The notes below the pieces were generated by a model, which was given only the letters and a program-made list of their open reading frames with translations, searched no databases and was not told the DNA's origin. A stretch of DNA of 57,883 nucleotides from a virus (lineage: Duplodnaviria > Caudoviricetes). Shown piece by piece: positions 11,965-55,623 of the stretch. Numbering within the stretch: position 1 is the first letter of the stretch; each line of letters begins with the position of its first letter. A program made the position numbers and the translations under genes. The DNA lies in IMG/VR virus record IMGVR_UViG_3300028025_002279, positions 1 to 57,883 of that record; one strand, 5' to 3'.

Positions 11965-11967
11965 ACT

Positions 11968-12377: not shown

Positions 12378-12380
12378 ACT

Positions 12381-13245: not shown

Positions 13246-13312
13246 CTTTTTAAGATGGCTAGAAGATTACAGGATTACACTAATGGAAAAATCAGGAACA
13301 GGTAAATTTTAA
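13229..13312 (+). CDS. peptide (27 aa)
   Basis: MKKIIDFLRWLEDYRITLMEKSGTGKF fills the gap. Confidence 0.4.
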   Translation: MKKIIDFLRWLEDYRITLMEKSGTGKF

Positions 13313-13315
13313 CAT

Positions 13316-13657: not shown

Positions 13658-13785
13658 CAATACTAATAATCTTAATGCTTCTCCTATTTATAGGATGGCT
13701 TAGTTACGAACTATACAATGCTCCATATATGGATGAGGATGGTAACATAATAGATATGAAAAACAATAACCATGATAATAACTAG
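13654..13785 (+). CDS. single-TM peptide (43 aa)
   Basis: MTILIILMLLLFIGWLSYELYNAP...; ATGA overlap. Confidence 0.5.
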   Translation: MTILIILMLLLFIGWLSYELYNAPYMDEDGNIIDMKNNNHDNN

Positions 13786-14533
13786 ACAGACACTAGAAGA
13801 AAGACCTCTGAGTTTTAGCTCTATCAAAGAATTTGCTAAGTCTCCTAGACACTACCTTGACTACATATCAAAAGAAAGGACACCACCTACTGATGCTATG
13901 AAGCTAGGTTCTATGGTGCACTGCATGATTCTAACACCTAACCTATTCAATGAACAGTTTGCTGTTGCTCCTGATATTAACAAGAGGACTAATGCAGGCA
14001 AGGAAGAATGGATTCAGTTCGCTAACCTACATGCAGGTAAAACCATCATAAACAACGAAGATTACGAACATGCTAGAAAGCTGGTAGATGGAGTTCTATG
14101 TAATGACTTGATATACGATACAGTCATGTCTTGCACAAACTTTGAGAAAGAGTGGCGTGCAGAATTAGATGGATTACCTTATAGAGGATTCTTTGATGGT
14201 GAGTCAGATGATTATATACTTGAAATCAAAACAACAACAGATGGTCATCCTAAAGCTGTTATGAGTGACTTTATAAGACGTAAGTATCACATGCAGTCAG
14301 GCATATATAATCAAGTATCCGGCAAGAAAGTACTCTATCTAATTGTAGAGACATCTGCCCCATATCTTTCCTACCTAGCATATGCTGATACAAGATACGT
14401 AGATTTAGGTAAGAAGGATGTATCAGAACTTAACAACAGATTCTACAAGTGTCTTGAGTCCGGTGATTTCACTGGAGGATACGATTACGACAATGTAATT
14501 ACAATAGACCTGCCTTGGTCTGTGGAAAAGTAA
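13772..14533 (+). CDS. PD-(D/E)XK exonuclease (DUF3799/RecE-like)
   Basis: LS.S.IK.F.KSP.HY, G..VH..IL.P, G.FD...I.EIKTT, YH.Q...Y. Confidence 0.85.
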   Translation: MIITRQTLEERPLSFSSIKEFAKSPRHYLDYISKERTPPTDAMKLGSMVHCMILTPNLFNEQFAVAPDINKRTNAGKEEWIQFANLHAGKTIINNEDYEHARKLVDGVLCNDLIYDTVMSCTNFEKEWRAELDGLPYRGFFDGESDDYILEIKTTTDGHPKAVMSDFIRRKYHMQSGIYNQVSGKKVLYLIVETSAPYLSYLAYADTRYVDLGKKDVSELNNRFYKCLESGDFTGGYDYDNVITIDLPWSVEK

Positions 14534-14534
14534 T

Positions 14535-14565
14535 TTTGCTGATATACAAATAGTTTGTAGATTTG
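14535..14565 (+). promoter_or_regulatory. Bacteroidota promoter, near-leaderless
   Basis: TTTG 14535-38, 19-nt spacer, TAGATTTG 14558-65, ATG 5 nt later. Confidence 0.7.
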
Positions 14566-14570
14566 CATAG

Positions 14571-14933
14571 ATGTCGAGATACGATTATATATACATCCAC
14601 CATAAGCACTTTAATATAGGTGGTATGACTGAGGATGATATCCTAGACCTTGTTGGACTTGAGTTTCAAACTAAGGACATGGATAGGGAGTTTCTGACAT
14701 ATATAATTGACGAACAAGGAGACTTATTTTTTGATGACTACCACTATGAATTAGTAGACTCAGATGGTGGACTATTCAGCAAAAAACTACAGGTTGTAGA
14801 AGACGGACGCAAGCCATCAAAATTTACAGGTATTGTAATGTTTTATGGTAAGCCATACGAGAGCATGTATACATTTCAATGTAAGATTGTAAACGGTAAG
14901 CTGAAATACATCAAGCTGATATCAATAATATAA
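14571..14933 (+). CDS. hypothetical protein
   Basis: 120 aa; FQTKD...Y.I...G.L...FTG...FY. Confidence 0.75.
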   Translation: MSRYDYIYIHHKHFNIGGMTEDDILDLVGLEFQTKDMDREFLTYIIDEQGDLFFDDYHYELVDSDGGLFSKKLQVVEDGRKPSKFTGIVMFYGKPYESMYTFQCKIVNGKLKYIKLISII

Positions 14934-14934
14934 C

Positions 14935-15204
14935 ATGAGCAGGGGAATAACCAAATCAAAACTGAAACAGAAGCACCCTAGACTCGCAGAAGTCTTGGAC
15001 TCGATAGAGGCAACCAATAAGAAGAAGCACTATTGGTTCTTTGCCAACTACGATGGTAAGTACACTACGCCAACAGGTGGACCTAGAACTGTTTCTCTAG
15101 GTGCAATCATAGATGTAATTAATGAATATGGCATGGACGTAGAAATTAACGTAGTGCCTGACCCTACTAAGAAGAGGCTCTGGGAGCCACTAGTCAAACC
15201 ATAA
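14935..15204 (+). CDS. hypothetical protein
   Basis: 89-aa ORF. Confidence 0.7.
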   Translation: MSRGITKSKLKQKHPRLAEVLDSIEATNKKKHYWFFANYDGKYTTPTGGPRTVSLGAIIDVINEYGMDVEINVVPDPTKKRLWEPLVKP

Positions 15205-32045: not shown

Positions 32046-35000
32046 TTACTTCTTGATATAACTATTGTCTGGCAGGTTAAATTTACCTTTGGTTACACCT
32101 AGTTTTACAGCTTGACTAAAGCCCGACTTATTCATAATATCATTGAGTTTCTTAGCTGGAACACCTCCTCTGATAGCAGAATCGTAGTAGTCTTTGATAA
32201 TCTTAATCTGTTCTTTGTACTTATCTACAGCCTCTCTATAAGCATCATTAAGCTCGATACCCTTAACTCCAGCATCTTTAGCTCTTGTATATATGTTCTC
32301 TGTATTCCTCAATCCATCCTTAAATCCAATCTCACTATTCTTGTTAGTATTGTCTACATATATAAATGTCCTAAACTGCTTCTCAAGGTCAACATCGTAT
32401 CTTCTAACAATCTGAGAGTAAGCTTCATTGATTGCCTTCTCGTAGTCACCTTTAGTATAGCTGTCAGCTATCTTTATAGAAGCTCCTACGAATCCCGGAC
32501 CCATTTGTTTTGCAACAAACATTGACTTATCCTGCCACTGCTTCCAAGGCTCATCTTTAGGATTGTATATAGAATTATTTGGATTTGTCATCAACTTATT
32601 AAAGTTATCCAAAACAAAGTCTCTCTGTAACCATGGGTCTAATGCTTCTGACATAGACTCTGATATAGCTTTATTGAATCCTTCCTTATTGTTTATGTTA
32701 GACCAGAATGCATTCCATACTCTCTTCTGGTAGTTGTAAGAATCAAGAGAACCTATATCATAGTAACTAAGTTTACCATTAGCGAAGCTAGTAGGATACT
32801 TGTCTGTATTCTTATTCCAAGGTGCTACAAATCTCTGTATAGCTTTGCTATTCTCTCTTTCTTCATCATCGTCTCCATTCATTACTCCTAACATTCCAGT
32901 AAGTCCAGCTCCTGCAAGAGAGAAGCCATAGTAAACCATAGAAGACAATAATGAATTGTATGCTACAGCTCCAGCTATTCTAGATAGACCTACAGTCTTA
33001 AGTCTAGGGTTACCGCTTAATATTTCCTTTCTAGCCAATGCTAGAGCGTTATACTGAACCCTAACAGATTCTACTGGGAACGATAAGAAGTTTCCTAAGA
33101 ATAGTACCTTACTAAGCACTTTTACCCCTTTAGGAACACGAGTAAATGTTGGATATGTATCCTTAACAATCTCAGATGCTATACCGTCTATATCCTTCTT
33201 TTCTGTCTCACTTAACTTATCATATGCTTTTTGATACTTAGCCTTAGCATATCTGTTTGATTCATTCACGAATCCTAATATCTTGAATAGGTCATCCTCA
33301 ATCTGGTATGCCTTTTCTATAAACTTAGGTATCTGTCTTGTGACAACATCTTTTGCTGTTCCTGATACCTTACCAATCATAGCTTTATTCTTGCCACCAG
33401 CCTTATAAATCTCAGTCAAGAAATCATCTACATTCTCGTTTCTCTTAAAGTATTGCTTTAGTTCTCCTATACCTAATGTATTGTTCAATACACCATATCT
33501 GTTTAGCGTATCCATCATTCTCATTACATCCTTGTCATCACCACCAACAATAGAAGCTCTCATATACTTATAAGCTTCAGGTATATAGTTCCAGTGACCA
33601 TTAGATATTGCAAAACCAGTGTTACCGATTACGTTTTTAATGTGAGTAGCAGGGTTATAAACAGTCTTGAATTTACGTACCCTACCAGCAATTTCTGTAA
33701 TCAATAGCGGTTTGTCATTCTCAGCCTTTTTAAGAGCCTCATATATCTCAGGGAAGGTATACAGTCCATTTAGAGGCTCAAGGCCTTTAGAGCCTTCTCC
33801 TGCTATCTGTACGGTAGCATCTTCTGTCTTGTAATCAAATATAAATTTACCCATACCATACTCCTTCATAGAGTTAAGGTACTGTCTAGAAGATGTAAGA
33901 CTTGCTATCTTAAATATAGATGCGTAGTAATTATATATAGGGTCAGTGTACTCACCCATTAAAGCTCTAAGCTCTGGAGACAATTCTTCATCAGATAGTC
34001 TCTTACCTAGAGATGCAACATTAGTGCTACCTGTAAGACCTCGCTGCATAACATATTCCTCAGCATTTGAAAGTAGCCCATTTGCTTCTATCCTTGCCTG
34101 CTTCATAGCATCCGCTTCAGACAATGAAGGGTTTTGTGCCATTGCTCTATCTACAAGAAACTTAAGTGCAGCATCTACAACAGTTTTATCTACGTTATTT
34201 AGTTTCTTGGCTACATTATCTATGTTAAGCCCCTTACCGTATAACGCTTGTGATATTCCAAACTTATCATTGTAGTCTATAGCCTCATAAGAACGAAGCA
34301 AATACTTACCTTTATTCTCTCTATAGTAGTCTATACTCTCTTGGCTATCTATAACACCTAGCTGTATTAGTCTTTCTGTTAGGTTGTCTACGTGTTGTCT
34401 TGCATTAGACAATGCAACAGCAAGGTCAGTAGGTAGATTACCCTCAACATCTTTACCAGTCATGAAATCCTCTACATCTTTCTTAGATACGCTATTCTTA
34501 TATTTCTTAGTAAGTAATATAGCATCCTTAGCATACTTCTCAGCTGTTGCTAACTCTGCTGATAATTCACCTGCTTTCTTTTCTTTAAGTATAACTCCTT
34601 CCTTACCAAGTACTCCATATCTACCATATTCTTTAGCTGCTAACTTAGTTATACCTACTAAACCTTGTTTAGCTAAGGCTTTTGTTGGGGCTTTCTGGAA
34701 CTGTGGCATACCTGCCTTAACAGATTGTTTGAGCTCAGGAGTTATATCTATTGCTGGTTGAATACCTGATGGTATTTTACTTTCAACAATAGTTCCTTCT
34801 TTTCCTGTAAGTTCTTTGACAACAGCTTTAGCTACTTTACCAACAATACCTACATTCTGTGCATCTCCATAGAATGCATTCATTCCTTTACCGCCAACCT
34901 TTAAACCATCACCTTGCAACCTTAAATCCCCAGCCTTATCTGCTTTTACTTTTTCTGCTATGTCCTTACCGAACATATCTTCTATCTCTTGCAATGATGT

Positions 35001-38000
35001 AGTGCCATTATCATCATAGGCAATTCTCTTTCCGTCTAAACCTAATGCTTCGTATTTATATCTATTATCTCCGATTCTGATAAAGTCAACTCTCTTGATA
35101 GATTTACTTAAATCATACCTTGCGTTCTGCTGTTCACCTGTAGTCCAAGCAATTCTATCCACACCTTCTTTAACAGCTTCCTTAAGTGCAACCTTCAATC
35201 CAAGCTTTACCCAAGCGTTAGTATCTGTTACAAATGGTGCTTTAGGAATTTCTTTAAATCCTTCTCTCTTACCTTTTTGTCCCCAATCTGACTGCACCTC
35301 TTCTAAAAACAAAACCTTCTTACCATCTGCATCTGTACGAGTATTCATCCTAAGATGTACAAGTATATTGCTATCATTTAGGAAATGATTTCCTTTAAAA
35401 ATATCTTTACCCGGAAGTATTACGAGTCTTTCTTTATAGTCCTTACCACCAGACAATTGATAGTCTTCATATATACTGCTTATAAATCCACCTATAGGTT
35501 CTTCTATTCCATACCTATCTCCATCCTCTCTAGCAGATGCTACAAAATCTTGAGCCTCATCTAGTGTTTCAAATGAATCTACTTCTCTATCTGTTCTCAT
35601 GTCGAAGACTTTATAGTCACCACCTCTTGTTTTCTCACTAATCTGAAGTCTGTTATCCTTCATAAACTTCAAAACATCTTGTTTAGAAACCTGTTCGTTA
35701 GGCTTCTTAGAATTTAACCAGTCTGCTAAACCTGAGTATACAGCTTCATCTGTCTTAAATCCAACTATCTCTTTCCACTTAGTTGCAGATGCATTAGGTT
35801 GTTTGAACTCATTAACCTTCTTAACTATAGGTGAATAGAATCCATTAACTACATCAGCATACTGCTTCTGATATTGCGGAACCTGTGCTAATGCTTTTGC
35901 TCTTTCTATAATTGCTTGAGGTTCTTTTTTAGTTCTTGCATACATAGAACCAGCAGTAGAAGTAGTTACAGGAACTGGATTACCATTTTTATCTACAAAT
36001 CTAGCTTCAGGGAATACCTCGTTTACATAATATTTACCATTCAATACAAATGGCTCTGTTCCATGAAACTTACCATTGAATTGCTTATGTTGGAATTTAC
36101 CAGACTTAGACCTATTCACAAAATCCTGTTCACTTATTGTTGGGTCTACAAAAAATCCAGTCATTGCAAATCCACCATCATTCAACTTCATCCCTTCAGT
36201 TTTGCCCTCAAGAGATTTTATCACATTCTCATCTCCGAATTTTTTATAAAAGTCTTTATGATTAAAGCCATCTTTATCTAATAAATCTCTAAGTCTACCA
36301 CCCGGCTTATTCTTTGCATTACCTACTTTATTGTAGAATTGACCAAACAAAACTCTTCTCGCATCAAATCCAAACTTAGGCGACTTATCTTCATTATTCA
36401 CCCTGTTTGATATTAATAGGTCGTAAATTTCTTTTTTAGTCTTTGGTGACCTCAAGTTTCCATTCTCTATTAAATTCAATAATTTATCTATAGAGTTTGA
36501 ATACTTTCGTCCAGTATCATTCGTTTCTTTTATAGAATTGAAATAAGCTTCAATATCAGCCTTTGCATCTTCAGCAGTTATCTGGTTATTAGACAAAGCG
36601 TATGATAAAGACTTAATGAAATAGTCAGCACCATATGCATTACCAAACATAACTTCTGGAGCTTGAACCATAACAAATATAGCAACCGGACTACCCTTCA
36701 TTTCAGGAAACTTCTCATCTCTAATTCTAGCTGCTTCTTGAACAGCTTTATAGAATGCTGTTTGTTTAGAATCCATTGAAGCAGCAAAGCCAATATTATC
36801 TTCTACATTTTGCTTTATAAATGTATATCCAATTCCTCCTTGACGAAGTATACCATTTTTAATACCTATACCAGTAGCATCTGAATTAATCACTACTACA
36901 GCACCTCCTGACTTTGAAACAATCTCAAACAATGTAGAGTTTTTCTCAGGTGCACGAAAGTCAATTCCTTTTGGAGCCCACTTTATATCAACCTTTCTAA
37001 ATGCCTTGTCTCCACTTTTTACAAATTCAAATTGAGCTGGATTAACTACAGCAATATTACTAACCACAACTGGGTCTGCTGTAACATCACCAACTATTTC
37101 AGCTATATTGTCAAATGTTATTTCTTCACCAGTAACAAATTTCTCAGTAACAAAATTTGCAAGTCTTAATAGGTCTGATTCATTTTTTATAGTCATCAAT
37201 TGTTTACTTCCAGAACCAATACCAATCCTACTTAACATATCAAGTAAGAATGCTTTAATTCTTTCGAAGTTTGATGGGTTTAACTGTATTCTACCATCTG
37301 CAATACCAGCAACAAAATCAGTTATTGCTTCTTTCTTCTGTGTTACATCTCCACTATATGTTGCCCTAGCCTGTTCTATTATTCTAGAAGCATCTGGTAT
37401 TGATTCAAGCTGTGCAAAAAAGTCATTTATTAATTGAGGATTATTCGCCTCGATATAGTCAAGCACAGGATGAAACCCTTCGTGAAGAACAGTATCTGTT
37501 TCTAGATTGTCCATGTTAAGATGGATACTACCATCTGTAGCCATATAAAAACCTCTAGCTGTAGCGTCTTGTTGAGTTCCGCCTGCCGCAATTACTGCCT
37601 TCTCAAATGAACCATCATCATGTAGACTTATCTGTACATCTTGACCTGTAGTTCCAACGACAATACTAGATAGTGATTTGGCTACATTTCTAGCATCTGA
37701 CAATACTTTTGATTGTAGCTTGTTAGGATTCTTAATCCTTACATCTGCTCCACGGTCTGTGACCCTACCATAGGTTGGCTCGATTTGCCTTGGAGAAACT
37801 GTTTCATTAACTCCAACTGCCTGTTCTTGGATAGGCTCTTGAACTTGCTGAGGTTCTTGCTGGGCTGCGAGTTGGGCTGCTGCATCGAGCTCTGCTTGGT
37901 GTTCTCTTGTAAGGAACTCTTCAAATTGTTCTTCATCTTTTAAGATTTCTTTTATTTGTATTTGGTATGCTAAGTCCTGAGCTACTTGACCCCTGAACTT

Positions 38001-40202
38001 CCTTCTCTTGCCAGCAGGAGTTGTAAGAACAACATTCATCACATTACCATTCTGGTCTAGACTAATTGCGTCTAGTGGATTCTCATTAGTATTCTTTAGT
38101 GGCTGACCTTCAATCCTATATCCCTGTGGAGTCTCTGTTACAAGCACTTCATCTAGTTCAATGTCATATGCATCAGGTAACTCATTCATTAACTTGTTTA
38201 CGTTACCTATTTCTATGATACGATTTGTACCTATAATCCTAGCTTCAACAGTTTGACCTTGCTGATATAGAATAGCAGGCTGTCCCTTAACTCTAACCTT
38301 CTTGTTTAGAAGTGCTGTTATCGGGATGTCGTCCCCTTCTTCGCCGACGATATAGCGATAGCCAATATCTGCTTTAGAGGTCTCTTGGTCTTGGACTTCT
38401 TGAGTTCCCTGACGTTGGCCGATATCGCCTTCTGGACGTCCTTCTTGGACTTGCTGCTCGCTTGTTTTAGTGGCATAATTTTCTTTTTTAATTTGTTCTA
38501 AATCATATCTATTTTTTGATATCTCTTCTTTAGGGCCGCCTTCTAATGATTTAAAATACTTGCCATTTTCTTCTGTGTAAGTAAATACATCATTTGATAC
38601 TATCTCTCTAATCTCATCGTTTATAGAAGCTCTCTTATCTTGAAGGAAAGAAAGCTCCTGTTCTTCAGAAGCTCTTAAGGCTTCGTCAATATTATTTATA
38701 TATTCTGTCCTCTTATTAATTTCTTCATCTAGCTTTATCCTCTGCTCAATCTTTGGTATGGCTACAGCTTGTGATAATGCAGGAGTTCCTTCTGGAATAG
38801 TCTGCTTTATCTGTGCATACCTATTGGCATTATTCATGATAAGTTCTCTCTCTTCCTCAGAGAAATTATTCTCATCAAATGTTTTAGTTAGCTCTTGTTT
38901 AATAGCGTCTAAATCTTCAGGAGTCTTTGCTTCTGCAATATCTTTTAATAACTGAGTATTTACATTCTTACCAAATGCTACGTCAGCACCTGCTCCTAAT
39001 ACAGGTCCAAATATACCTCCAGCTACTGCTGAATTGACCACATTAGATATAAATCCTTTAGCTATTTCTTCTTCATTAAATACTTCATTCCCTTGTACAG
39101 CATTTGATGCATACTTTGCACCATCTTCTAGTGCTGCCTGTGCACCTTCAGTTCCACCTTCCACAAGTGCTCTATATCCTCCTCTTTTCAAATTACTTGT
39201 AAGTGCTTTTACTTCTGCAACAGCCGCTTCTTCAATTACATCAACAGCTCTCTTACCTGTTACGTTTGCTGTATTCTTTAATACATTAGCTATTACTTTT
39301 CTTTGTATGTTCCTAAATACAGGCACATCACCCACAATCTTATCTACTGCAAACTTTTCTAGAACACCATTAATTATACCACCAGCAAGTCCATATAAGT
39401 TTCTGGCTTTAGGGTCCATTGCGTATCCTGATTTCTCAATAGCAGAGTCATAATCATCCCAAGCATTCTGCATACCTTGAGCAACAAATGTAGCACCACC
39501 AGTAGCAGCACCTAGTGCCATATCTGTAGCAATACCACCAGACATTCCGATTAATCCTTGCAAGTCTTTAAGACCAATACCATCCATTACATCAAACTGA
39601 CCTTTCAATGCAGCTTCTTCTTGTCTGGTTGTATATCCAGAACGAATAACATCAAAAGCCTGTTCTATATTTTTCATTGACTCCTTTGCAGGCTTTAGTC
39701 TTTCTTGTATAGGAAGCTGTTGGAAAGCCCTAGCAGACTCAGCTGTTTTACCAATATCTACAGGAGAAAATTGATAAGGAGTAATAGGTACTGAAGCTGG
39801 TAGTTGTGTAGCAAATTTTGCTAATGTTTCAAAAGAACCAACAATTCCGTTATATAGTGTAGAAAGGGTTTTGCCAATCTCACTCTTATCTTCATCTACT
39901 GCTTTTTGATATTTTGCTTGCTTAGGCTCTTCTTTGGCGACTAAAGGAGTCATATATTCTACCTGCTGTTGAAAAGTAGGTAATCCACCTTTTGGCATTG
40001 CCTTAGCAGCAGGAGCTGGACCTGAAGGAGCTATCTTTCTCTCAAAATCTTCAAATGTGCCTAGGTCATACGCTTTACCAACAGTATTGTAAAGAGTCCT
40101 CCTTTTTGTCTGGTCAGACATCTTAGACTTAAAATCCTCGAATGACCCTAAATCGTATTCGCCTGATAACGCATCATAAAGAACTTTTACTTTGTCTGGC
40201 AT
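32046..40202 (-). CDS. giant internal virion (ejected) polyvalent-type protein
   Basis: 2718 aa; N-terminal YDLG.FEDF repeats, HEGFH zincin-like motif, EEVQSDW domain; lies after the tail genes. Confidence 0.75.
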   Translation of the reverse strand: MPDKVKVLYDALSGEYDLGSFEDFKSKMSDQTKRRTLYNTVGKAYDLGTFEDFERKIAPSGPAPAAKAMPKGGLPTFQQQVEYMTPLVAKEEPKQAKYQKAVDEDKSEIGKTLSTLYNGIVGSFETLAKFATQLPASVPITPYQFSPVDIGKTAESARAFQQLPIQERLKPAKESMKNIEQAFDVIRSGYTTRQEEAALKGQFDVMDGIGLKDLQGLIGMSGGIATDMALGAATGGATFVAQGMQNAWDDYDSAIEKSGYAMDPKARNLYGLAGGIINGVLEKFAVDKIVGDVPVFRNIQRKVIANVLKNTANVTGKRAVDVIEEAAVAEVKALTSNLKRGGYRALVEGGTEGAQAALEDGAKYASNAVQGNEVFNEEEIAKGFISNVVNSAVAGGIFGPVLGAGADVAFGKNVNTQLLKDIAEAKTPEDLDAIKQELTKTFDENNFSEEERELIMNNANRYAQIKQTIPEGTPALSQAVAIPKIEQRIKLDEEINKRTEYINNIDEALRASEEQELSFLQDKRASINDEIREIVSNDVFTYTEENGKYFKSLEGGPKEEISKNRYDLEQIKKENYATKTSEQQVQEGRPEGDIGQRQGTQEVQDQETSKADIGYRYIVGEEGDDIPITALLNKKVRVKGQPAILYQQGQTVEARIIGTNRIIEIGNVNKLMNELPDAYDIELDEVLVTETPQGYRIEGQPLKNTNENPLDAISLDQNGNVMNVVLTTPAGKRRKFRGQVAQDLAYQIQIKEILKDEEQFEEFLTREHQAELDAAAQLAAQQEPQQVQEPIQEQAVGVNETVSPRQIEPTYGRVTDRGADVRIKNPNKLQSKVLSDARNVAKSLSSIVVGTTGQDVQISLHDDGSFEKAVIAAGGTQQDATARGFYMATDGSIHLNMDNLETDTVLHEGFHPVLDYIEANNPQLINDFFAQLESIPDASRIIEQARATYSGDVTQKKEAITDFVAGIADGRIQLNPSNFERIKAFLLDMLSRIGIGSGSKQLMTIKNESDLLRLANFVTEKFVTGEEITFDNIAEIVGDVTADPVVVSNIAVVNPAQFEFVKSGDKAFRKVDIKWAPKGIDFRAPEKNSTLFEIVSKSGGAVVVINSDATGIGIKNGILRQGGIGYTFIKQNVEDNIGFAASMDSKQTAFYKAVQEAARIRDEKFPEMKGSPVAIFVMVQAPEVMFGNAYGADYFIKSLSYALSNNQITAEDAKADIEAYFNSIKETNDTGRKYSNSIDKLLNLIENGNLRSPKTKKEIYDLLISNRVNNEDKSPKFGFDARRVLFGQFYNKVGNAKNKPGGRLRDLLDKDGFNHKDFYKKFGDENVIKSLEGKTEGMKLNDGGFAMTGFFVDPTISEQDFVNRSKSGKFQHKQFNGKFHGTEPFVLNGKYYVNEVFPEARFVDKNGNPVPVTTSTAGSMYARTKKEPQAIIERAKALAQVPQYQKQYADVVNGFYSPIVKKVNEFKQPNASATKWKEIVGFKTDEAVYSGLADWLNSKKPNEQVSKQDVLKFMKDNRLQISEKTRGGDYKVFDMRTDREVDSFETLDEAQDFVASAREDGDRYGIEEPIGGFISSIYEDYQLSGGKDYKERLVILPGKDIFKGNHFLNDSNILVHLRMNTRTDADGKKVLFLEEVQSDWGQKGKREGFKEIPKAPFVTDTNAWVKLGLKVALKEAVKEGVDRIAWTTGEQQNARYDLSKSIKRVDFIRIGDNRYKYEALGLDGKRIAYDDNGTTSLQEIEDMFGKDIAEKVKADKAGDLRLQGDGLKVGGKGMNAFYGDAQNVGIVGKVAKAVVKELTGKEGTIVESKIPSGIQPAIDITPELKQSVKAGMPQFQKAPTKALAKQGLVGITKLAAKEYGRYGVLGKEGVILKEKKAGELSAELATAEKYAKDAILLTKKYKNSVSKKDVEDFMTGKDVEGNLPTDLAVALSNARQHVDNLTERLIQLGVIDSQESIDYYRENKGKYLLRSYEAIDYNDKFGISQALYGKGLNIDNVAKKLNNVDKTVVDAALKFLVDRAMAQNPSLSEADAMKQARIEANGLLSNAEEYVMQRGLTGSTNVASLGKRLSDEELSPELRALMGEYTDPIYNYYASIFKIASLTSSRQYLNSMKEYGMGKFIFDYKTEDATVQIAGEGSKGLEPLNGLYTFPEIYEALKKAENDKPLLITEIAGRVRKFKTVYNPATHIKNVIGNTGFAISNGHWNYIPEAYKYMRASIVGGDDKDVMRMMDTLNRYGVLNNTLGIGELKQYFKRNENVDDFLTEIYKAGGKNKAMIGKVSGTAKDVVTRQIPKFIEKAYQIEDDLFKILGFVNESNRYAKAKYQKAYDKLSETEKKDIDGIASEIVKDTYPTFTRVPKGVKVLSKVLFLGNFLSFPVESVRVQYNALALARKEILSGNPRLKTVGLSRIAGAVAYNSLLSSMVYYGFSLAGAGLTGMLGVMNGDDDEERENSKAIQRFVAPWNKNTDKYPTSFANGKLSYYDIGSLDSYNYQKRVWNAFWSNINNKEGFNKAISESMSEALDPWLQRDFVLDNFNKLMTNPNNSIYNPKDEPWKQWQDKSMFVAKQMGPGFVGASIKIADSYTKGDYEKAINEAYSQIVRRYDVDLEKQFRTFIYVDNTNKNSEIGFKDGLRNTENIYTRAKDAGVKGIELNDAYREAVDKYKEQIKIIKDYYDSAIRGGVPAKKLNDIMNKSGFSQAVKLGVTKGKFNLPDNSYIKK
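37739..37936 (-). CDS. possible overprinted small protein (+1 frame)
   Basis: 65-aa ORF over a low-complexity linker of the giant protein. Confidence 0.35.
   Translation of the reverse strand: MKNNLKSSLQENTKQSSMQQPNSQPSKNLSKFKSLSKNRQLELMKQFLQGKSSQPMVGSQTVEQM
38318..38476 (-). CDS. overprinted small basic protein (MPLK...IS.N..E...RP.KQ..AIA.S.A type)
   Basis: hand-translated MPLKQASSKSKKDVQKAISANVRELKKSKTKRPLKQILAIAISSAKKGTTSR with an A-rich leader. Confidence 0.7.
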   Translation of the reverse strand: MPLKQASSKSKKDVQKAISANVRELKKSKTKRPLKQILAIAISSAKKGTTSR

Positions 40203-42218: not shown

Positions 42219-45200
42219 CTATCTATTATAAAAAGGTTCTAAAATTGATGATTCTATATAATACAAATTTACGAATTCATTGCCATTAACTGGTGATAAT
42301 TTAATTCTTAGCCAGTTTCCCTTCAATACGTTACCATTATACAGCCCACCCGTGCTCGCAGCATCCCTCTTAAACGCTACGTGTATCTTATCATCCTTAA
42401 ATATAAAGTCAGATGGTTGTAAGCTAGAAGTCTGAGACAGGTTGGTTGTTATATCTCCAGCTGTTGCAGGAGCCCATACTTTATTAGCCAACATCGTCAA
42501 GGTATTATACCTCTTCTTTATCTGAGGGAACTGATTCAATAAAAGAGTTAGAGATGGCTTATACTGAACACCGTAGAAATTACAATAGTTTGTAGTATTA
42601 TCATGAGTATACAATATTCCATTCTTCCATGATATAACCACATTTTCTGCTGTTGTCATCCATTCTGGACTAAAACTATAAAATGAAGTATAAGCGTTTC
42701 TGAACTCATTAAAGCCAAAAGTATATGGCTGGCTCTTATCATCTCCAGCAGCACTCTCCTGCATACAGGTAACAAACTCCTCGTTAAATTGGTCGTATAC
42801 GCCAAGTATCTTAGCCTTACCCTGACCAGTAATATTATTTCTTGTCTTATTATACTTAACTATAAGTGGTGTTAGGAAGAAGTGAGCCTTATACAGCTCT
42901 GTTATTGGAGTAAGTCCGTCAGCACTTAGTCTTACTTGACAACCTCTAACTGGGTCTGTGAAGTAGTCTGCTTGAGCAGATGAAGCTAAAGAACAGAACT
43001 GACCCCCTATGCCATAGTCTCCTAAATAATACTGAATCTTATTGATAATCTCAGCACTCTGTGATAAAACCCCATTACCATCAACAGTCTGTACTACGTT
43101 CTGTAATACAGGTACAACTCCACATGCCCTATTTTGAAATACCCTAAGCTGCCTACCCCTAATCTTCAATCTTTGTATATCTCCTTTCTCTCTATCGTAT
43201 TCATCAAAGTTTGCTGCATAGAACCTATTTGTTAGGTTTATATTTGTACCAGATTGATAATCAAGAGAATATCTAACTAAAGTAGGATAGTATTCTTCCT
43301 TGGCATATTCATCAACAACTAGAGGTCTTCCATTTCCATCAAACTTAGAATTATACTTGTCAGACATTGATTTATCTAAAATCCATTGTCCTTCTCTTAA
43401 TCTGCTATATATATCTCCCCTAAAGAATTTAAAAATAGCTGGTAACGTACTTGTTTGAGATTGAACTGAACTGGAATGATATCTGTTTACTCCATCATTA
43501 ATAACAGAATATGTTTCACCAAACTCATAAAATACCTGTGTTTCTTCGTTGGAGTTTATAGTAGGAGAGTAGACTTCTATATAATATATCTTATACCCGA
43601 CTGTTCCAAAGTTTGTCATAGTTAGAGAGTCGTATGGTATTTTAAGCCAAGTCCTATCTCTGGGTGGAGGTGCAGATGTTGTGATATCATTACTGTTAAC
43701 TATACTATAAACAGGATAATCTGATACAGTTGCCGTGCCATTTTTTAATCCAATTATACGAACCCTATCACCTTTTGTAAACCCATATGGAGAATATCCT
43801 GATTTATTATTTTGATAGTCTGTTATATCTAAATAAGCATAAACAGATGCTGCATCTTTGTAAGTATCTGAAGTTACTATAGTTTTAAATTCAGACACAG
43901 TTAAATTAGTAGTTCTTACAAATGAGAAGTATTTAGCCCATGATGGAGCCTGATGACTTACACTAAATTCAATAAGCGGTATAGTTAACTGTGTACCAGA
44001 CAAGTCAGAAGATGATATCTCCGGAGTAATTACACTCATAGAGTCAGACGTAGTTACACCATTTGTTACTCCATTCTCGTCAAAATAACATATACCAAAA
44101 GAGTATCTTGACTTATGCTTATAACAAGCTGTATTTACACCTGTTGGGTCAGCAGGCAATGTTCCTCCACCAGCATATGTATATACAAAGTTGTATGAAT
44201 CAAGTATCCAAGCTTTATTCACACTATTAAATCCAATCTTAACACCTCTTTTTCCATTAAATTCACCGGGTTCTACAAGTTGCAAAGCAAATACTGAGCT
44301 AGCTAAACCATAGTTCTGTAGTGTTACATTAGAAGTAAGTTGTGAAACAAGTATAGTCTCTAAAGATGCTAAATTATTTTGTCCAGCAGTTAATGTTGGT
44401 ATGCTTATTGTAACGGTAACAGATTCAATACCTGCTCCTATATCTCTTCTAAATGATAGAGAAAATGTATACGAATCTCCTACGTTTGGAGTTCCATTAA
44501 ATATTATATAGTGATTTCCGTTAGTTGCATTATATACAGGATAATACGAGAACGTATACCTATTATAAGATGCCATTGTAAGATTATTTGTCGTGTTTGT
44601 ATTTGCGACAAGACTTAATGACTGTGTTACTGAAGGCGTAATAGATGATGTTCTTCCCTCTGTAATACCACCATATATCAATGTATTACCATTTAAAAGC
44701 TCCTGTGTATTAGCCTTAATTGGAACATAGTCAAATAGTTGACTGGATTCTGCTACATCAATACTTGGATACGCCTCAGTATTATAGAACTTATACTCAT
44801 ATTCTGAATTATCTGGTATACCATTCTTTATAATTGTTTTTACAAGAAAAGAATCAGAGAATACATTATCAATACTTTCCCTAGCCACAATTTCTATTGA
44901 TTTTACATCAGCATCACCTGTCTGATATTTTATTGATATTCTATTGTTTTTAGTATTACTTATTTCATTTGCAATAGCATCAACATCAGCAGGTGCAAAT
45001 AATCTACTCCAAGGACTAAATGTAGACTTTGTATTGTCTTTATACACCCATCTATATCTAAACTGATATAGCTTACTTCTTAAATTATTAATATTTGTAG
45101 AAATGTCATCTTCATATTTACATATAGGAGATAAAAGAGGCATTGGCCTAGCAACAGTCAAATACTTCTTTTTCCAGTTTCCATTATATGTCTTATTTAC

Positions 45201-51269: not shown

Positions 51270-53576
51270 TTATTGTTGCATTTCTTCAATATCACCTTCT
51301 TCTGCCATCTGCTCATCTTCCATTTGCTGCATAGCCTGTTGTTGCATTATCTGCATTTGTTCAGCTTGCTTCTTCTGGAAATAGGCATCAACAACAGCTT
51401 GTAGTTCTGGACTGAGTGGTTTACCTAACTCATAAGATTTCATTAATATATCTTGTACAAATTGTTGTTCAGATAAATCCTGTTTCATCTTCATCTCTGT
51501 CTGAGTAACAGCTAATTTACCTTGTGCCTGCATTTGTTCAAGCTGCATATCTGATTGCGCCTTAACCTGAATAGATTGTTGCTGCACTTGTGCATTCATT
51601 TGAGAGTTAGCTTGTGCTTTCTCCATATCCTCTTTAGCCTTCCTTTTCTTTGCCTTAGCTAAATACATCTCAGCGAGTTTAGTGTTTTTTATGCTTCTAA
51701 CCCTAAACGCATCCTCAAAATCTATAACACCAGCAGAAAGTGCTGTCTGAATCATAGCTTCAATAAATTGTCTCTCCTTATCATCTGGAAGTATATTTAT
51801 TTTAACATCAAATACCTTACCATCTATATCTTGAGGATTTAAATATTCTCTATATTGCTGTCCTCCATATAATACTGAGTCATAAAGTAACATAGAAATC
51901 TTAAGTGCTGTCTGCTGATAGATAGATAAGAATGAATCATATATAAAATCAGTAGCATTGTTAGATGCTGCTATCTGCTGCTGTTGAACGCCAAGTCCAA
52001 GCTTTGGATTTACAGAAGCACCTTCTCTATATTCATTTACACCAATCTCATCACGTAATCTGTCTAAGTAGTGGTTATAAACCAAGATAAGCTCTTGAAT
52101 CTGTCCAACACTAGAACTATTAGGAGCTTCAGAAATTGGTAGTCCATTTTGCTGGTCTCCATCCTCTGTTCTCCTTCTATAATATATATTACCAGTTTGG
52201 TCGTATATCTTTTGAATTTCTAGTGGGCTTATATTTTTACCTTGACCAAGACTAATATCAGACAATGAGTCGATATCTATAATCAGACCAGAAGGTCTAA
52301 GTTTAGCTATAAGCTGTTGAATCTTAAGGTGAGCCAAAGTCATCTGCCTTATAGAAGTCTCCATCCTTTCAGGTAGAGCCATGTTTATAAGGTCAAGATT
52401 CTCATACATATATAGAGAATAACTGAAGTGTACCTCAGACATTTCTTTAGCCGTATTAGGCTTAATCATGTTCTTAAGTATACCCCACTCCAACATTAAA
52501 TCAGTACCCATAACATATACGCCTCTATAAATTACGTACATGTCTTTCTTGATTACTTCTTTATTATCGCCAAGTCTTTGAGGTTCTTTCTCCTTTCTTT
52601 CTACTATAAGGTTTCCAAACTTATTAATCTTTGCTTGGTAAATCATTGTATCTATACTCTTAATCTCAAAGTCTATAACATCAACAGTCCAATCATCATA
52701 TGGCCTGTCTAAAGAGAATCTATATCTTTCGTCCCACTTAACAGTCTGATTGAACTGTTTAGACTTCTTGGCAATCTCGAACATTTTAGCTTCATCGAGA
52801 TTTGGGTAGTTATTTCTGATGTCGATAATCTTCATAGATACAACCTCACCAAGAAAAGAAACATCCCTAAAATCATCATATTCCGAGAAAGAATAAATGA
52901 GGTTTTCTGGTACTACTCTTCTGATATTTATCTTCCCATTCTGTGCTACGCTTACCTTAGTTGCTGCAACACCAGTCTCAATTAAGTCTTCTATAATTTT
53001 TCTTTTAATTACCTCCCAACCATTCATATGGCTAACGTAATCTATACCTTTTTCAAAAAGTATCTCCTCTGGTAATTGATATTCCATACCAAAATACAGT
53101 TCTAGCTCTTCATAATCTTCTGGAGTAAATTTACCTTCTGCCATTAATTTAACACCAGTCTGTTCTTCTATTTGTCTAACTTGGTCACCAAAATTCATCC
53201 TAAACTCAGCCTCATCTTTATCATATCTCTTCCTCTTTGTTGATATAGGGTCTACAGCAGTTGCTTTTGCAACCTCGCTTCTCTTCATAAATCCACCTAT
53301 AATTACCTGCATAAACTTAGGTGCAATAGCTGGAGCTTTCATATCTAGGTTTACAAAAGCCTCTTTTCCGTCTACATTTAATAGGTCTAAGAATTCTGAC
53401 ATAGGCTGTCTACCTCTGGCAAACATCCTGTTCTTTTCGAACTTCTTATTCCTTCTGTTAAAGTATCCGCTATTGAATGCTCTCTCAATAAATCTAGATA
53501 TCTTTAGTCCCTCCTTATCTTCCTTCTTCAACCTTGAGTTGGAGAGGTGGAAGTTTAGTATATTTTTATTTTCCAT
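51270..53576 (-). CDS. portal protein
   Basis: 768 aa after terminase; R.FARG.Q, I.PKF, TG..YYR, IRD..G.NE.R-like, Q-rich C-terminus. Confidence 0.85.
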   Translation of the reverse strand: MENKNILNFHLSNSRLKKEDKEGLKISRFIERAFNSGYFNRRNKKFEKNRMFARGRQPMSEFLDLLNVDGKEAFVNLDMKAPAIAPKFMQVIIGGFMKRSEVAKATAVDPISTKRKRYDKDEAEFRMNFGDQVRQIEEQTGVKLMAEGKFTPEDYEELELYFGMEYQLPEEILFEKGIDYVSHMNGWEVIKRKIIEDLIETGVAATKVSVAQNGKINIRRVVPENLIYSFSEYDDFRDVSFLGEVVSMKIIDIRNNYPNLDEAKMFEIAKKSKQFNQTVKWDERYRFSLDRPYDDWTVDVIDFEIKSIDTMIYQAKINKFGNLIVERKEKEPQRLGDNKEVIKKDMYVIYRGVYVMGTDLMLEWGILKNMIKPNTAKEMSEVHFSYSLYMYENLDLINMALPERMETSIRQMTLAHLKIQQLIAKLRPSGLIIDIDSLSDISLGQGKNISPLEIQKIYDQTGNIYYRRRTEDGDQQNGLPISEAPNSSSVGQIQELILVYNHYLDRLRDEIGVNEYREGASVNPKLGLGVQQQQIAASNNATDFIYDSFLSIYQQTALKISMLLYDSVLYGGQQYREYLNPQDIDGKVFDVKINILPDDKERQFIEAMIQTALSAGVIDFEDAFRVRSIKNTKLAEMYLAKAKKRKAKEDMEKAQANSQMNAQVQQQSIQVKAQSDMQLEQMQAQGKLAVTQTEMKMKQDLSEQQFVQDILMKSYELGKPLSPELQAVVDAYFQKKQAEQMQIMQQQAMQQMEDEQMAEEGDIEEMQQ

Positions 53577-53607: not shown

Positions 53608-55623
53608 CTACAGCCTGATGCTGAAAGTCTTAATCGGTATCACAGAATATTCCTTTTCCTTCTTGGCCACCTCAACAGCCACCCCAGATAACAAGCTAAT
53701 CATAAATGCCACACTTCTATCGTATGGGGTTCTGTTTTCATGGTCATACTGCAATAGTTCCTCAAGCAGGTCAATGTATACAACCTTATCGCAATGATTC
53801 TCAATATATGATATACATGTATCTAGCTGCCTAGCCATAGCAAATGCATCTCCAGATGTAACCCCGTATTTGTGAACGGTCCTACGTCTATGCTTATCTA
53901 TAGCAGATTCTGGAGTTCTCATAAGGTAAGACCTAAATCCTTTATTTGAAAAGTAGTCTACGAAATCGTCACCAACGTCATTCTCGTAACATGCACGATA
54001 TCCCCAAAATACAGCACCCTTCAACATCTCATCGTGGAACATAGATTTCATTCTTGGTCTATCTACATATTCAGCAATAGGCATACACGTATTATTTGGG
54101 TCAGAAGGGTCTAGCCTTTCAAATACGTAGCATACTCCCATAGAGCCCTTTCCTGATATTACAGACGACTTAAATGGGTCAATCCCTGACACGTACTTAT
54201 GTGCGTTACCCGGAACCCTAGAACCGTCTACCTCTATAAATTTATTAGCTTCTGTCTTATCTGGTATCTTATAGGCTATCCAAGAGCCCTCTGGGTCGTC
54301 AGCCCAATCTACCGTCCTCTCGTTTTTCCAGTATAGCCTAATTCTTCTAAGGGCAACTCTTTCCTCCTTTAAGAAGTCTATCTGGTTGTATATCTTCTCA
54401 GAGTTGAAGTAACACTTCTTTTGGTCAATCATAAATGCTTCCTCCTCAGTAAAAGGGTTCATCCTTATCTCTTCACTAAGTGCCTTCTTATCTTTAATGA
54501 TTGCCCTCTGTGAAAGAAGGTAATCCTTAGCACCCATAGTTATATTCATTCCGTATCTTTCCTTGATGTACTCCTTCTGCTTTTCAGTAGGGGTATCTAT
54601 TATAGACATACCGAACTCGTCTATAAATCCTTCATATCCATCGTAGGCAGGACAGAAATATCTATAAAGACCAGTAGCTGTATATGCATCATCGAATTGA
54701 GAGCTTCCTTCAAACAACATCTTGTATGGTTCACCACCACTCTTGGCATCGTTTGCTGTAGATGGGATGATACAGAATCCTACCTTAATTGCACCCTTCA
54801 TCATCGTCTTCTTTACAATAGGCCAGTACTGATTTACGGGTACTTCTTTTGGCCACTTACCAGCCTCATCCATGAGTAGGGCAGTTACCCTACCAGAGTC
54901 GTAAGAGTTAAGTGCTGTATTCTTAAAACTAATTTTAGACTCAAGACCAATATCATCGTCAAACACCTGACCTTTCTCTCTTCCCTTAGTCTTTCTTTTA
55001 TCTTTCTTCTTTCTAAATACCAACTCAGTCTTCGTCTCTTCATCTTCTGCTCTAGGCTTAAAGAATACTGGCAAGTTTCTGTATCCGTTCATTACCATAT
55101 ATACGAATGCATCAGATGCGTCCTTACCAGTCTTAGATACGATACCACAGAATGACTTTCTCTGTGTTATAGCTTTCCATACAATGTAACAGGTAGCTTG
55201 TGATGTAGCACCCTCACGACGCTTCTTAATTCTTATAACTCCAAAGCATTGTGGTATCTTCTCACAGTATTCTTGAAAGTAAAAGTATCTTCTGTCTACG
55301 TCACGGTAGTCAGGAAAGTTACCATCTTCTAGCGTCCAATAGTTAAGATAGAAATAGTGTAGTCCATTTATATATGTAGGATTACCATCATTATAAAACC
55401 AATAACCATCATTAATCCTAGCCCACTCTCTCTTGATAAAATTTACGTGTTCATCAGCATATACAGCAGAACCATCTTCATCAAACTCTAGGTCATGAAA
55501 AGACTCTGGTATCTGAATCCTAGTAAACTTTTGCTTAGAAGATTTGTATAGGTCTATGCTAGACTTAGCAGGAACTTCAGGAGTCTTATATGTAATTCCG
55601 TATATATTATGTTCTTGTATCAC
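53608..55623 (-). CDS. terL: terminase large subunit
   Basis: K.RR.G.T Walker A, LLMDEAGKW Walker B, P.T.EEAF, GIDP nuclease Asp. Confidence 0.9.
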   Translation of the reverse strand: MIQEHNIYGITYKTPEVPAKSSIDLYKSSKQKFTRIQIPESFHDLEFDEDGSAVYADEHVNFIKREWARINDGYWFYNDGNPTYINGLHYFYLNYWTLEDGNFPDYRDVDRRYFYFQEYCEKIPQCFGVIRIKKRREGATSQATCYIVWKAITQRKSFCGIVSKTGKDASDAFVYMVMNGYRNLPVFFKPRAEDEETKTELVFRKKKDKRKTKGREKGQVFDDDIGLESKISFKNTALNSYDSGRVTALLMDEAGKWPKEVPVNQYWPIVKKTMMKGAIKVGFCIIPSTANDAKSGGEPYKMLFEGSSQFDDAYTATGLYRYFCPAYDGYEGFIDEFGMSIIDTPTEKQKEYIKERYGMNITMGAKDYLLSQRAIIKDKKALSEEIRMNPFTEEEAFMIDQKKCYFNSEKIYNQIDFLKEERVALRRIRLYWKNERTVDWADDPEGSWIAYKIPDKTEANKFIEVDGSRVPGNAHKYVSGIDPFKSSVISGKGSMGVCYVFERLDPSDPNNTCMPIAEYVDRPRMKSMFHDEMLKGAVFWGYRACYENDVGDDFVDYFSNKGFRSYLMRTPESAIDKHRRRTVHKYGVTSGDAFAMARQLDTCISYIENHCDKVVYIDLLEELLQYDHENRTPYDRSVAFMISLLSGVAVEVAKKEKEYSVIPIKTFSIRL

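Follow-up and report, generated by a model that had tools for sequence, protein, structure and literature searches.

A small basic phage protein predicted to be encoded out of frame within a giant virion gene

We describe a 159-nt open reading frame that is very probably a functional gene for a small protein, lying within a giant virion gene and read in its +1 frame, a conclusion drawn from sequence comparison. The window analyzed is a whole stretch of 57,883 nucleotides from a virus of the Caudoviricetes. The ORF listing places the small frame (38318..38476, minus strand), which runs from an ATG at 38476..38474 to a TAA stop at 38320..38318, wholly within a 2718-aa ORF of the same strand (32046..40202). 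Its ATG begins at the second base of the host codon TAT (Tyr576), so that the small ORF occupies the +1 frame. The initial annotation had reported a complete small basic ORF inside the giant gene, and its translation is identical to ours letter for letter. The 52-aa product has a pI of 11.3, with 15 K+R among 52 residues, and its AF2 model (pLDDT 85.6) has two helices, at residues 11-27 and 34-47. The length of the ORF is by itself within chance expectation, since the same giant gene contains a longer +1 ATG-ORF (65 aa, 37739..37936) for which no conservation was found among relatives. What goes beyond chance is the conservation of the nested ORF and its pattern of selection.

Phrog matches, matches to structural proteins, coding pattern and operon context identify the product of the enclosing gene (32046..40202, minus strand) as a mosaic virion structural protein. 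It matches phrog_22602 (virion structural protein) over residues 1952-2541 and phrog_24532 over residues 2-60, as well as structural proteins of Cellulophaga phages, and the gene sits in a late structural operon, downstream of terminase and portal genes and followed by tail genes. Across the nested gene, the host frame (residues 576-629; 38316..38477, minus strand) reads YATKTSEQQVQEGRPEGDIGQRQG..., an acidic, Q-rich segment (pI 4.2, 12 D+E, 8 Q). AF2 assigns a pLDDT below 50 to residues 575-624, against mostly 74-91 in the flanking 10-residue blocks: as the initial annotation had proposed, the main frame here is a linker, predicted to be disordered, between two folded regions. In two close relatives (L005 and L016), the small gene is free-standing between two large genes, further downstream; their counterpart of the N-terminal part of the giant protein is shorter by 41 residues, and the gap coincides precisely with the nested segment. 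For five other hosts (L033, L036, L061, L065 and L074), BLASTP aligns nothing but the nested segment to the giant protein of the window.

The nested product belongs to phrog_2423, a family of small, basic phage proteins with two helices that occurs widely. It matches the phrog_2423 HMM over its whole length (E 7.3e-4; residues 1-48 on profile positions 1-40 of 52), and a close relative (P0003) matches at E 2.5e-5. The E-value of the window protein alone is modest. In a six-frame search of its own record with phrog_2423, the nested copy (E 2.9e-4) is the sole copy, as it is in the complete relative G003. A profile built around the nested protein (A2) and searched against 1.84 billion representatives retrieves 543 protein clusters at E<=1e-3, 16 of them at E<=1e-10. 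These are mostly stand-alone proteins of 40-80 aa, and the matches mostly begin at residue 1 of the matched protein; eight of ten sampled matches fall in phrog_2423 (E 1.6e-5 to 9e-19). In an alignment of 77 family sequences (A3), M1-P2-L3 is invariant and N21, L25, R32, Q36 and A39-I40-A41 are at least 90% conserved; the window protein has every one of these residues. It also shows the motif and size of the family as taken from this alignment, not from a published description: a Met-Pro-Leu start, N..EL, RP.KQ..AIA, about 40-60 aa and two helices. A relative is found in 193 GenBank phage records, including gene 48 of SP6 and K1-5 and P-HS2_00042, and, with the 543 clusters and the phrog_2423 match, this bears out the earlier assertion that stand-alone homologues are widespread.

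That these homologues lie near head genes, as also asserted, holds for some phages only. The head module of P-HS2 has the order terminase, portal, head morphogenesis, small gene, scaffold, major head, and gp43 of Acinetobacter phage AbP2, encoded beside the major head gene, consists of the small domain followed by DUF2213. In SP6-like phages, however, the small gene adjoins the tailspike gene, not head genes; in K1-5 the two genes overlap terminally by 23 nt. Other phages have the family as separate genes or as an in-frame part of a head-assembly protein. The Pfam family DUF6496 gives no match to the window protein at E<=10, the protein thus falling short of its gathering cut-off, and none to 14 clade members at E<=1, whereas 18 of the 77 members of the wider family match at E<=0.01 (best 1.7e-5); its relation to the family is therefore distant at most. 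DUF6496 is present on 16% of members of one neighbouring Atlas cluster, and no mention of it was found in the literature searched. Fold searches with the small protein returned no match.

We fetched 92 loci, 83 of them non-identical, and added the window. Among these 84 loci, a giant ORF encloses the gene in 59, always with the same frame offset, and the gene stands free in the other 25; the sequences share kinship, so that locus counts and Mann-Whitney P do not represent independent observations. All 59 nested copies are intact and start with ATG (58 with MPL, one with MLL), down to 48% identity, in a collection made by small-protein similarity that would miss badly decayed copies; the sole scan not seeded by the small protein gave 6 contigs. 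The initial annotation had named a lack of homologues, or a frame broken in relatives, as telling against the gene; homologues are numerous and the frame is unbroken in 59 of 59. Giant host ORFs contained within contigs measure 1582-3438 aa from stop to stop, and nested copies are found in unrelated host genes, also in a phage of 62% GC. In syntenic relatives (L007, L010), the neighbouring genes are 38-77% identical to those of the window. BLASTP of the giant proteins of L007-L011 against that of the window gave no match at E<=1e-5, and weaker matches (E ~1e-4), running through the nested segment, were obtained only for L007-L009; the small protein is nevertheless about 60% identical to that of the window. 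Indels in the small protein are all multiples of three and fall in the loop between the two helices.

Substitutions follow the small frame. Pairwise differences at its codon positions 1/2/3 are 0.31/0.19/0.50 in nested copies and 0.29/0.19/0.55 in free ones. The median Nei-Gojobori dN/dS, obtained by a method (NG86) not designed for overlapping genes, is 0.22 for the small frame, compared with 1.97 for the host frame, and the small-frame value is the lower one in 50 of 50 usable pairs (55 pairs in all). Small-frame dS between nested copies ranges from 0.15 to above 2. In five alignable giant genes, host-frame third-position divergence is 0.55 upstream and 0.58 downstream, against 0.14 over residues 577-628. 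Along the whole giant gene, strong reversal appears in only 5 of 178 windows, which cover residues 560-637, and the coding pattern is normal throughout outside this region (about residues 560-637). These patterns show purifying selection on the nested gene in its own frame while it is nested. As for the host frame, stops are absent from all 59 nested copies, whereas the equivalent frame of the 25 free copies contains one to nine in every case. Selection is thus seen on both frames, in agreement with the earlier claim that both are kept: the small frame is conserved as protein, and the host frame is kept open only and is otherwise unconstrained.

The small gene had been described as rich in GC and CpG relative to its surroundings, and so it is: GC is 0.503, compared with 0.369 for the giant gene and 0.377 and 0.310 for the 300-nt flanks, and CpG observed/expected is 1.09 versus 0.37. 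This composition ranks at the 99.4th percentile among the 159-nt windows of the giant gene. Dual coding, rather than a foreign source, explains the local excess: nested copies exceed their flanks in GC by a median of +0.130, free copies by only +0.006.

The region preceding the nested start (38477..38501, minus strand) is a putative translation-initiation region, A-rich and unstructured, with A at -3 and no Shine-Dalgarno motif. The A-rich leader mentioned in the initial annotation is present, as AAAAAAGAAAATT-ATG, and is coded in the host frame by Lys/Glu/Asn codons. An A-rich start context is in part a by-product of the Lys/Glu-rich host sequence. Among 38 candidate gene starts in the window, one has an SD-like motif, and A frequency reaches 0.58-0.71 at about -16 to -10; the nested start resembles the phage's own SD-less gene starts. 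The A at -3 is shared by 51 of the 59 nested loci. The mean fold energy round the nested start is -0.31 versus -4.66 kcal/mol, and all 52 loci evaluated have less structure there than the background. The nested ATG has the best PWM score (7.95) among the 205 ATGs of the giant gene; the second-best (6.34) belongs to the non-conserved 65-aa ORF, so that start context alone does not discriminate. A Shine-Dalgarno-independent start context is described for Bacteroidota hosts in PMC6847099.

Could the +1 ORF be an accident of a Lys/Glu-rich, stop-poor stretch, its likeness to small phage proteins being compositional? The longer, meaningless 65-aa frame in the same gene and the E-value of only 7e-4 for the window protein alone against phrog_2423 would fit such an accident, which nevertheless has practically no likelihood left. 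A chance open frame is refuted by third-position divergence, dN/dS and intactness over loci: the ATG and ORF persist in all 59 nested relatives, codon-position pattern and dN/dS indicate coding in the small frame, the motif is conserved position by position over 77 family members, orthologues stand free with stops in the other frame, and the loci are not near-identical copies, small-frame dS rising above 1. Programmed frameshifting into the +1 frame, for example at an A-run, would yield a giant protein truncated at about 575 aa and carrying a basic tail, and no separate 52-aa protein. In the window, an AAAAAAG run does precede the ATG by 7-13 nt; however, we consider this route very unlikely, as no conserved in-register slippery sequence exists upstream. 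The run is not conserved (upstream sequences of L003, L006 and L007-L012), its host register is AAA AAA G and not the X XXY YYZ of -1 slippage, and a -1 shift would miss the +1 frame. Furthermore, a stop closes the +1 frame 1-27 codons before the ATG, in several loci only 1-2 codons before it, and the ATG and Met-Pro-Leu are kept as in free-standing genes.

Alternatively, the island may be kept as DNA or RNA, either as a homology patch for module shuffling or as an RNA structure, with the open +1 frame as a relic. Host genes are mosaic, the nested segment is the sole BLASTP-aligned part in five hosts, and the island is GC-rich. Yet variation is concentrated at third positions of the small frame and lowest at second positions, a protein-coding rather than nucleotide-level signature, and all indels are multiples of three in the inter-helix loop; an element conserved only as nucleic acid is thus very improbable, and a side role of the island as a recombination patch may be added to that of a gene. 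A relic of another kind would be a gene recently swallowed by gene fusion, its expression lost and its frame intact for want of time. Close relatives do have free-standing copies between two large genes, two of the free copies have only one stop in the host-equivalent frame, which puts fusion a few mutations away. Against this scenario, which we hold to be extremely improbable, nested copies separated by a small-frame dS of 0.15 to more than 2 still show dN/dS near 0.2 and an intact ATG, they reside in unrelated host genes and in the phage of 62% GC, and one complete genome has no other copy than the nested one. The embedded functional gene remains the preferred explanation.

Judged by its phylogenetic distribution, in a family of 543 clusters, the nested frame is ancestral and the linker frame derived. 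The initial annotation had suggested that a once-independent gene was engulfed. Independence finds support in the free-standing relatives, among them the two without the 41 host residues, and in the ancestral nested frame; the route to nesting may have been engulfment by fusion, insertion, or later un-nesting. The small-protein tree requires at least five changes between the free and nested states, and homologous modules flank the gene in loci of both types. A bolder and rather doubtful reading is that of a reverse, reversible overprinting, in which giant mosaic virion genes repeatedly swallowed and released an old free gene, each time reading it in the -1 frame as no more than an expendable linker, and in which the nested position is selected. 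Were this true, nesting could couple synthesis of the small and giant proteins, from the same mRNA and in the same place; the giant protein would be a possible partner or chaperone client of the small one, and the conserved DNA could double as a homology patch for swapping the giant's N- and C-terminal modules.

Embedded phage genes are a known kind; what is new here is that the nested frame is the older one. Embedded genes of the Rz1 type are small, are contained entirely in a larger phage gene whose +1 frame they occupy, and are translated from their own start. The present gene has the same arrangement, its expression being predicted. Spanin genes of the lambda Rz/Rz1 type are described with embedded, overlapped and separated architectures (PMC6139136), a range paralleled here by 59 nested copies, 25 free ones and the terminal overlap of K1-5. 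Unlike Rz1, the nested gene has no sequence relation to that system, no lipoprotein signal and no lysis context; its host is a giant virion protein of 2-3.4 kaa, and its family is far wider than the host segment and includes an in-frame fused form. Internal overlaps by overprinting, such as phiX174 E inside D, likewise combine an ancestral and a derived frame on the same strand (PMC8227390), with a disordered derived frame as in our case. In the classical cases, it is the nested gene that arose de novo, whereas by that source's phylogenetic-distribution criterion the nested gene is here ancestral, and the derived frame is the host's linker of about 50 residues, +2 relative to the ancestral one. 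With gene 48 of SP6 and K1-5 and P-HS2_00042, the window copy shares family membership by HMM, the M-P-L ... N..EL ... RP.KQ..AIA pattern, a length of 40-60 aa and basic character, but these are free-standing and it lies out of frame inside another gene, with GC raised by about 13 points through dual coding. AbP2 gp43 (annotated 'head maturation protease', DUF2213) and the metagenomic fusions P0079, P0089, P0095, P0108 and P0139 carry the same domain of about 40 residues at their N terminus, there as an in-frame part of a larger protein and here in an alternative frame.

On the late structural mRNA, most ribosomes would read the giant frame, and some would initiate internally at AUG 38476, in the A-rich unstructured stretch with A at -3, yielding the 52-aa protein together with the giant protein. 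Judged by gene neighbourhood only, the probable role of the small protein is in the assembly of heads or virions, or else that of a protein inside the virion with a link to the giant one: the family occurs in head modules, is fused to the DUF2213 'head maturation protease' in Acinetobacter phages, and in this clade invariably lies within or immediately next to a giant virion gene.

The protein is absent from annotation in the whole phage group, which probably infects Bacteroidota, because gene callers forbid genes nested inside genes; this gap matters, the nested copy being the only family copy in at least one complete genome. The initial annotation had suspected that such nesting may be general in giant proteins. 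The same gene does recur in 58 other giant ORFs, but a scan of the whole giant gene found no further dual-coding island. The usual genealogy of internal overlaps is inverted: the gene inside is old, and what is new is the frame in which the enclosing gene codes its linker. This suggests one way for giant multidomain virion proteins to grow across neighbouring genes without losing them. The gene also offers a concrete case for putative Shine-Dalgarno-independent internal initiation. Finally, the occurrence of one gene in both the free (25 loci) and the nested state (59) makes it an uncommonly clean natural experiment on overlapping genes and gives a direct measure of what dual coding costs: GC is higher by about 13 points, second-frame stops vanish, and protein-level constraint is nearly unchanged.

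The nested gene (38318..38476, minus strand) is an ATG-initiated ORF of 52 aa lying wholly within the giant ORF of 2718 aa at 32046..40202 on the same strand. Its ATG starts on the second base of host codon Tyr576, which places it in the +1 frame, and its translation is identical to the small protein read in the initial annotation. The 52-aa protein is strongly basic (pI 11.3; K+R 15/52), and the host residues over it, 576-629, are acidic and Q-rich (pI 4.2). The segment had been described as rich in GC and CpG, and it is: GC is 0.503 versus 0.369 in the giant gene, and the CpG observed/expected ratio is 1.09 versus 0.37. The record, of 57,883 bases, has an estimated completeness of 80%. The giant gene is set in a late structural operon, with the terminase large subunit (53608..55623), the portal (51270..53576) and virion structural protein genes upstream and tail-like genes downstream. 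Residues 1952-2541 of the giant protein match phrog_22602, 'virion structural protein', and the protein is also matched by Cellulophaga phage structural proteins; Pfam gave nothing above cut-off for either the small or the giant protein.

By itself, the length of the nested ORF is unremarkable. Elsewhere in the giant gene, a +1 ORF with an ATG (37739..37936, minus strand) reaches 65 aa and is thus longer than the nested gene. We considered this ORF as a second nested gene and rejected it: it is broken or deleted in the related loci L004 and L006, contains stops in L003, and its codon pattern is that of ordinary host-frame coding. Being a chance ORF, it is useful as a negative control.

The small protein matches phrog_2423, a family of unknown function, over its full length (E 7.3e-4), and is the sole phrog_2423 match in the window's genome, with the family HMM and also with an HMM built for this analysis. 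A word-indexed protein search returned a single match, P0003 (49 aa, 73% identity), and tblastn against GenBank phages gave weak matches (48% identity, E 0.9) in five Prochlorococcus phage records. In one of these, P-HS2, the match is an annotated 43-aa CDS, and the gene order is terminase, portal, head-morphogenesis protein, a 63-aa gene, the small gene, more small genes, scaffold and major head protein. When 1.84 billion representatives were scored with a profile built from 14 clade members (A2), 543 clusters passed E<=1e-3 and 16 of them E<=1e-10, mainly proteins of 40-80 aa aligned from residue 1; of ten sampled hits, eight matched phrog_2423 (E 1.6e-5 to 9e-19). In a wider alignment of 77 sequences, Met-Pro-Leu is invariant and N21, L25, R32, Q36, A39, I40 and A41 are at least 90% conserved; the window's small protein has all of these residues. 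Pfam DUF6496 is matched at E<=0.01 by 18 of the 77 family members, and a Pfam search with the window's protein gave no DUF6496 match.

With the family alignment, AF2 predicts two helices in the small protein, at residues 11-27 and 34-47 (pLDDT 85.6). Foldseek searches with this model gave best E-values of 4.2 in PDB and 0.81 in BFVD, to generic two-helix hairpins with no functional lead; the ESM Atlas likewise returned only unnamed viral clusters of like size, with no functional lead and with DUF6496 on 16% of the members of one cluster. The PDB matches to the family profile were TAL-effector repeats only (6jtq_A, 3ugm_A) and were set aside, as the short motif QVVAIAS is matched many times over and the summed E of 5e-5 adds up numerous stretches, none of them significant by itself. 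Each TAL-effector repeat starts with QVVAIAS, which the family motif KQ(I/V)VAIA(L/S) resembles; the likeness is most likely coincidental and confined to a short motif within a helix-loop-helix unit.

We then compared the positions of family members among related loci. Scanning viral contigs for the small protein yielded 11 loci: in ten the gene is nested in the same relative frame, in host ORFs of up to 2747 aa (the shortest, 1730 aa, is truncated by the end of the locus), and in one (L005) it is free-standing. A scan seeded with the giant N-terminal domain only, and not with the small ORF, gave six contigs, four nested and two free (L005 and a new one, L016). A single metagenome scan with the narrower alignment A2 added 80 loci. 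The resulting 92 loci reduce to 83 non-identical ones, or 84 with the window, of which 59 are nested and 25 free. All 59 nested copies are intact and begin with ATG (58 with MPL, one with MLL); the free copies start with ATG in 24 cases and with TTG in one. From stop to stop, host ORFs contained entirely within their contig measure 1582-3438 aa, and the nested gene begins anywhere from host residue 503 to 1161. Six-frame searches found exactly one family copy in each of the contigs of L002, L005 and L012, and none in two Cellulophaga phages, phi19:3 and phi13:2, which have giant proteins only distantly related to the window's.

Locus L012 comes from a phage of 62% GC with no detectable relation to the window's phage. 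Its contig is complete, with terminal repeats, and its sole family member (10001..10177), preceded by an SD-like GGGGA, is nested with the same frame offset in a 2430-aa ORF (7801..15093). A search for relatives of this GC-rich nested case returned none but L012 itself.

Substitution patterns indicate which of the two frames is selected. Pairwise differences between nested copies at small-frame codon positions 1, 2 and 3 are 0.31, 0.19 and 0.50, almost identical to those between free copies (0.29, 0.19 and 0.55). Among the 55 pairs from the first 11 nested copies, 50 were usable for NG86 estimates; median dN/dS is 0.22 in the small frame versus 1.97 in the host frame, and the small frame is lower in 50/50 pairs. 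NG86 is not designed for overlapping genes, so weight is placed on the contrast between frames and not on absolute values; that the host-frame estimate exceeds 1 is an artefact caused by the overlap. In the five alignable giant genes, divergence at host third positions is 0.55 over residues 1-575, 0.14 over 577-628 and 0.58 over 630-2718, and within residues 577-628 the most variable host position is the first, that is, the small-frame third. A scan of the whole giant gene in 178 windows showed a strong reversal only in the five windows over residues 560-637; four others reached a marginal tie only, with saturated divergence. We consider it very likely that the nested ORF is a selected coding gene.

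The same segment persists where the surrounding gene has diverged. In L007 and L010, neighbouring genes are 38-77% identical to the window's and in the same order, and in both the giant gene (8443..14916 in L007) occupies the syntenic slot of 32046..40202. The giant proteins of L007-L011 gave no BLASTP match to the window's at E<=1e-5; weaker matches (E about 1e-4) occur in L007-L009 only and run through the nested segment. In five hosts this segment is the only BLASTP match to the window's giant protein. As judged from such comparisons, the giant gene is a hypervariable mosaic virion gene.

The host frame is without stops in 59/59 nested copies, and the equivalent frame contains one to nine in 25/25 free copies; the host frame is therefore kept open, because the 2100 residues downstream must be made. 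The linker that it encodes is predicted to be disordered: for giant residues 440-760, AF2 predicts confidently folded flanks and a pLDDT below 50 for residues 575-624. A homologue in L005 and L016 (gene A), with 37% identity across giant residues 22-764, is missing 41 residues, and this gap coincides exactly with the nested segment. We also asked whether the GC/CpG island could be a mark of foreign DNA. The median GC excess over the flanks is +0.130 in nested copies and +0.006, near zero, in free ones, and the foreign-DNA reading was rejected on this ground. The island is instead the price of a second frame without AT-rich stops; in L012, the phage of 62% GC, the nested segment shows no GC excess over its flanks.

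Gene starts in the window resemble those of Bacteroidota, in which, according to PMC6847099, translation starts rely on a lack of mRNA structure and on particular bases, for example A at -3. An SD-like motif is found at one of 38 candidate gene starts (which include 40202, 41613, 45677 and 53576), and the frequency of A upstream peaks at 0.58-0.71 around -16 to -10. Together with the likeness to Cellulophaga phage structural proteins, these SD-poor, A-rich starts suggest a Bacteroidota host. A weight matrix was derived from 30 ATG starts of the phage itself; of the 205 ATGs in the giant gene, the nested one has the highest score under it, 7.95, and the giant gene's own start scores 5.67. The meaningless control ORF comes second in the giant gene (6.34), so the start-context score is permissive and not decisive. 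A is present at -3 in 51/59 nested loci. The stretch from -25 to +15 around the nested start has a mean folding energy of -0.31 kcal/mol versus -4.66 for host-gene background windows, and in all 52 loci examined, which are mutually related, it has less structure than the background median. The nested gene is thus probably expressed by internal initiation. Frameshifting was also considered as its mode of expression and discarded, because the A-run lacks conservation and lies in the wrong register, and because a stop closes the +1 frame 1-27 codons ahead of the ATG.

How the nesting arose can be addressed in part from distribution. By the phylogenetic-distribution criterion for the ancestral frame, as it is outlined in PMC8227390, the ancestral frame is that of the small gene, and the frame of the linker is derived. 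A weakly resolved tree of the small protein (56 columns) requires at least five changes between nested and free states, of which well-supported branches force only one; shuffled labels require 21.7 on average, and 0/500 shuffles were as low as the real tree. In the free L005-type clade, the order is large gene, small gene, large gene, and the region that directly follows the nested gene in hosts L033, L054, L059 and L068 shares 22-25% identity with the downstream gene of this clade (gene B) across some 900 residues. Similarly, the genes upstream and downstream of the free copy in L028 both align to the single host ORF of L054, each on the matching side of the nested gene. These alignments agree with a fusion of large genes over the small one, or with a fission in the opposite direction. 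In two free copies a single stop interrupts the host-equivalent frame, and fusion is therefore mutationally close. The flanks of the free copies in L037 and L077 gave no BLASTP match to nested hosts, hence no clean fusion/fission pair at those loci. A single ancient nesting at a homologous site cannot be claimed, since a profile-profile comparison between N-terminal flanks in the window's clade (A1) and those in the L007-L011 clade (A4) gave a probability of 3.9%.

Embedded spanin genes (Rz1 in Rz), whose arrangement likewise varies between embedded, overlapped and separate, and internal overlaps of the phiX174 type come closest to this case. Unlike in those cases, the inner gene here is older than the frame in which the enclosing gene reads the segment, a giant mosaic virion gene serves as host, and one and the same gene is seen free, nested, terminally overlapping and fused in frame. 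A search of non-subscription literature turned up no account of either this nested gene or DUF6496.

The last two arrangements came from wider searches. With the family member P0079 as query, 193 GenBank phage records were matched. In Escherichia phage K1-5, the family member is gene 48 (L020 3501..3650), the first 23 nt of which are shared with the end of tailspike gene 47; SP6-like phages carry such a terminally overlapping member at the right genome end, outside the head module. In Acinetobacter phage AbP2, the small domain forms the N-terminal ~41 residues of the 442-aa gp43 (L021 3501..4829), annotated as 'head maturation protease', which carries DUF2213 and adjoins minor and major head genes. 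Given the P-HS2 head module, this Acinetobacter head-protein fusion and the place in or beside giant virion genes, we tentatively propose from gene positions that the small protein may have a role in head or virion assembly, or may be an internal virion protein tied to the giant protein; the site by the tailspike gene in SP6-like phages departs from this pattern.

Other fusions were noted among metagenomic proteins. In P0079, P0089, P0095, P0108 and P0139 (316-580 aa), the small domain is fused in frame before a Gly-rich middle region; a common C-terminal stretch is apparent by eye among the sequences compared, and two of these, when scanned, gave no further Pfam or PHROG family. In the predicted proteins P0022, P0023, P0024, P0026 and P0030 (135-205 aa), the small domain is C-terminal, directly after '...KGGK', and its internal Met-Pro-Leu is kept; these may be real fusions or gene calls starting too far upstream. 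Finally, the uncultured Caudoviricetes record MW202675.1 (search matches H16 and H19) has a P0079-like fused family member at 8103..8681 and, at 43284..44078, a segment matching residues 1628-1847 of the window's giant protein.
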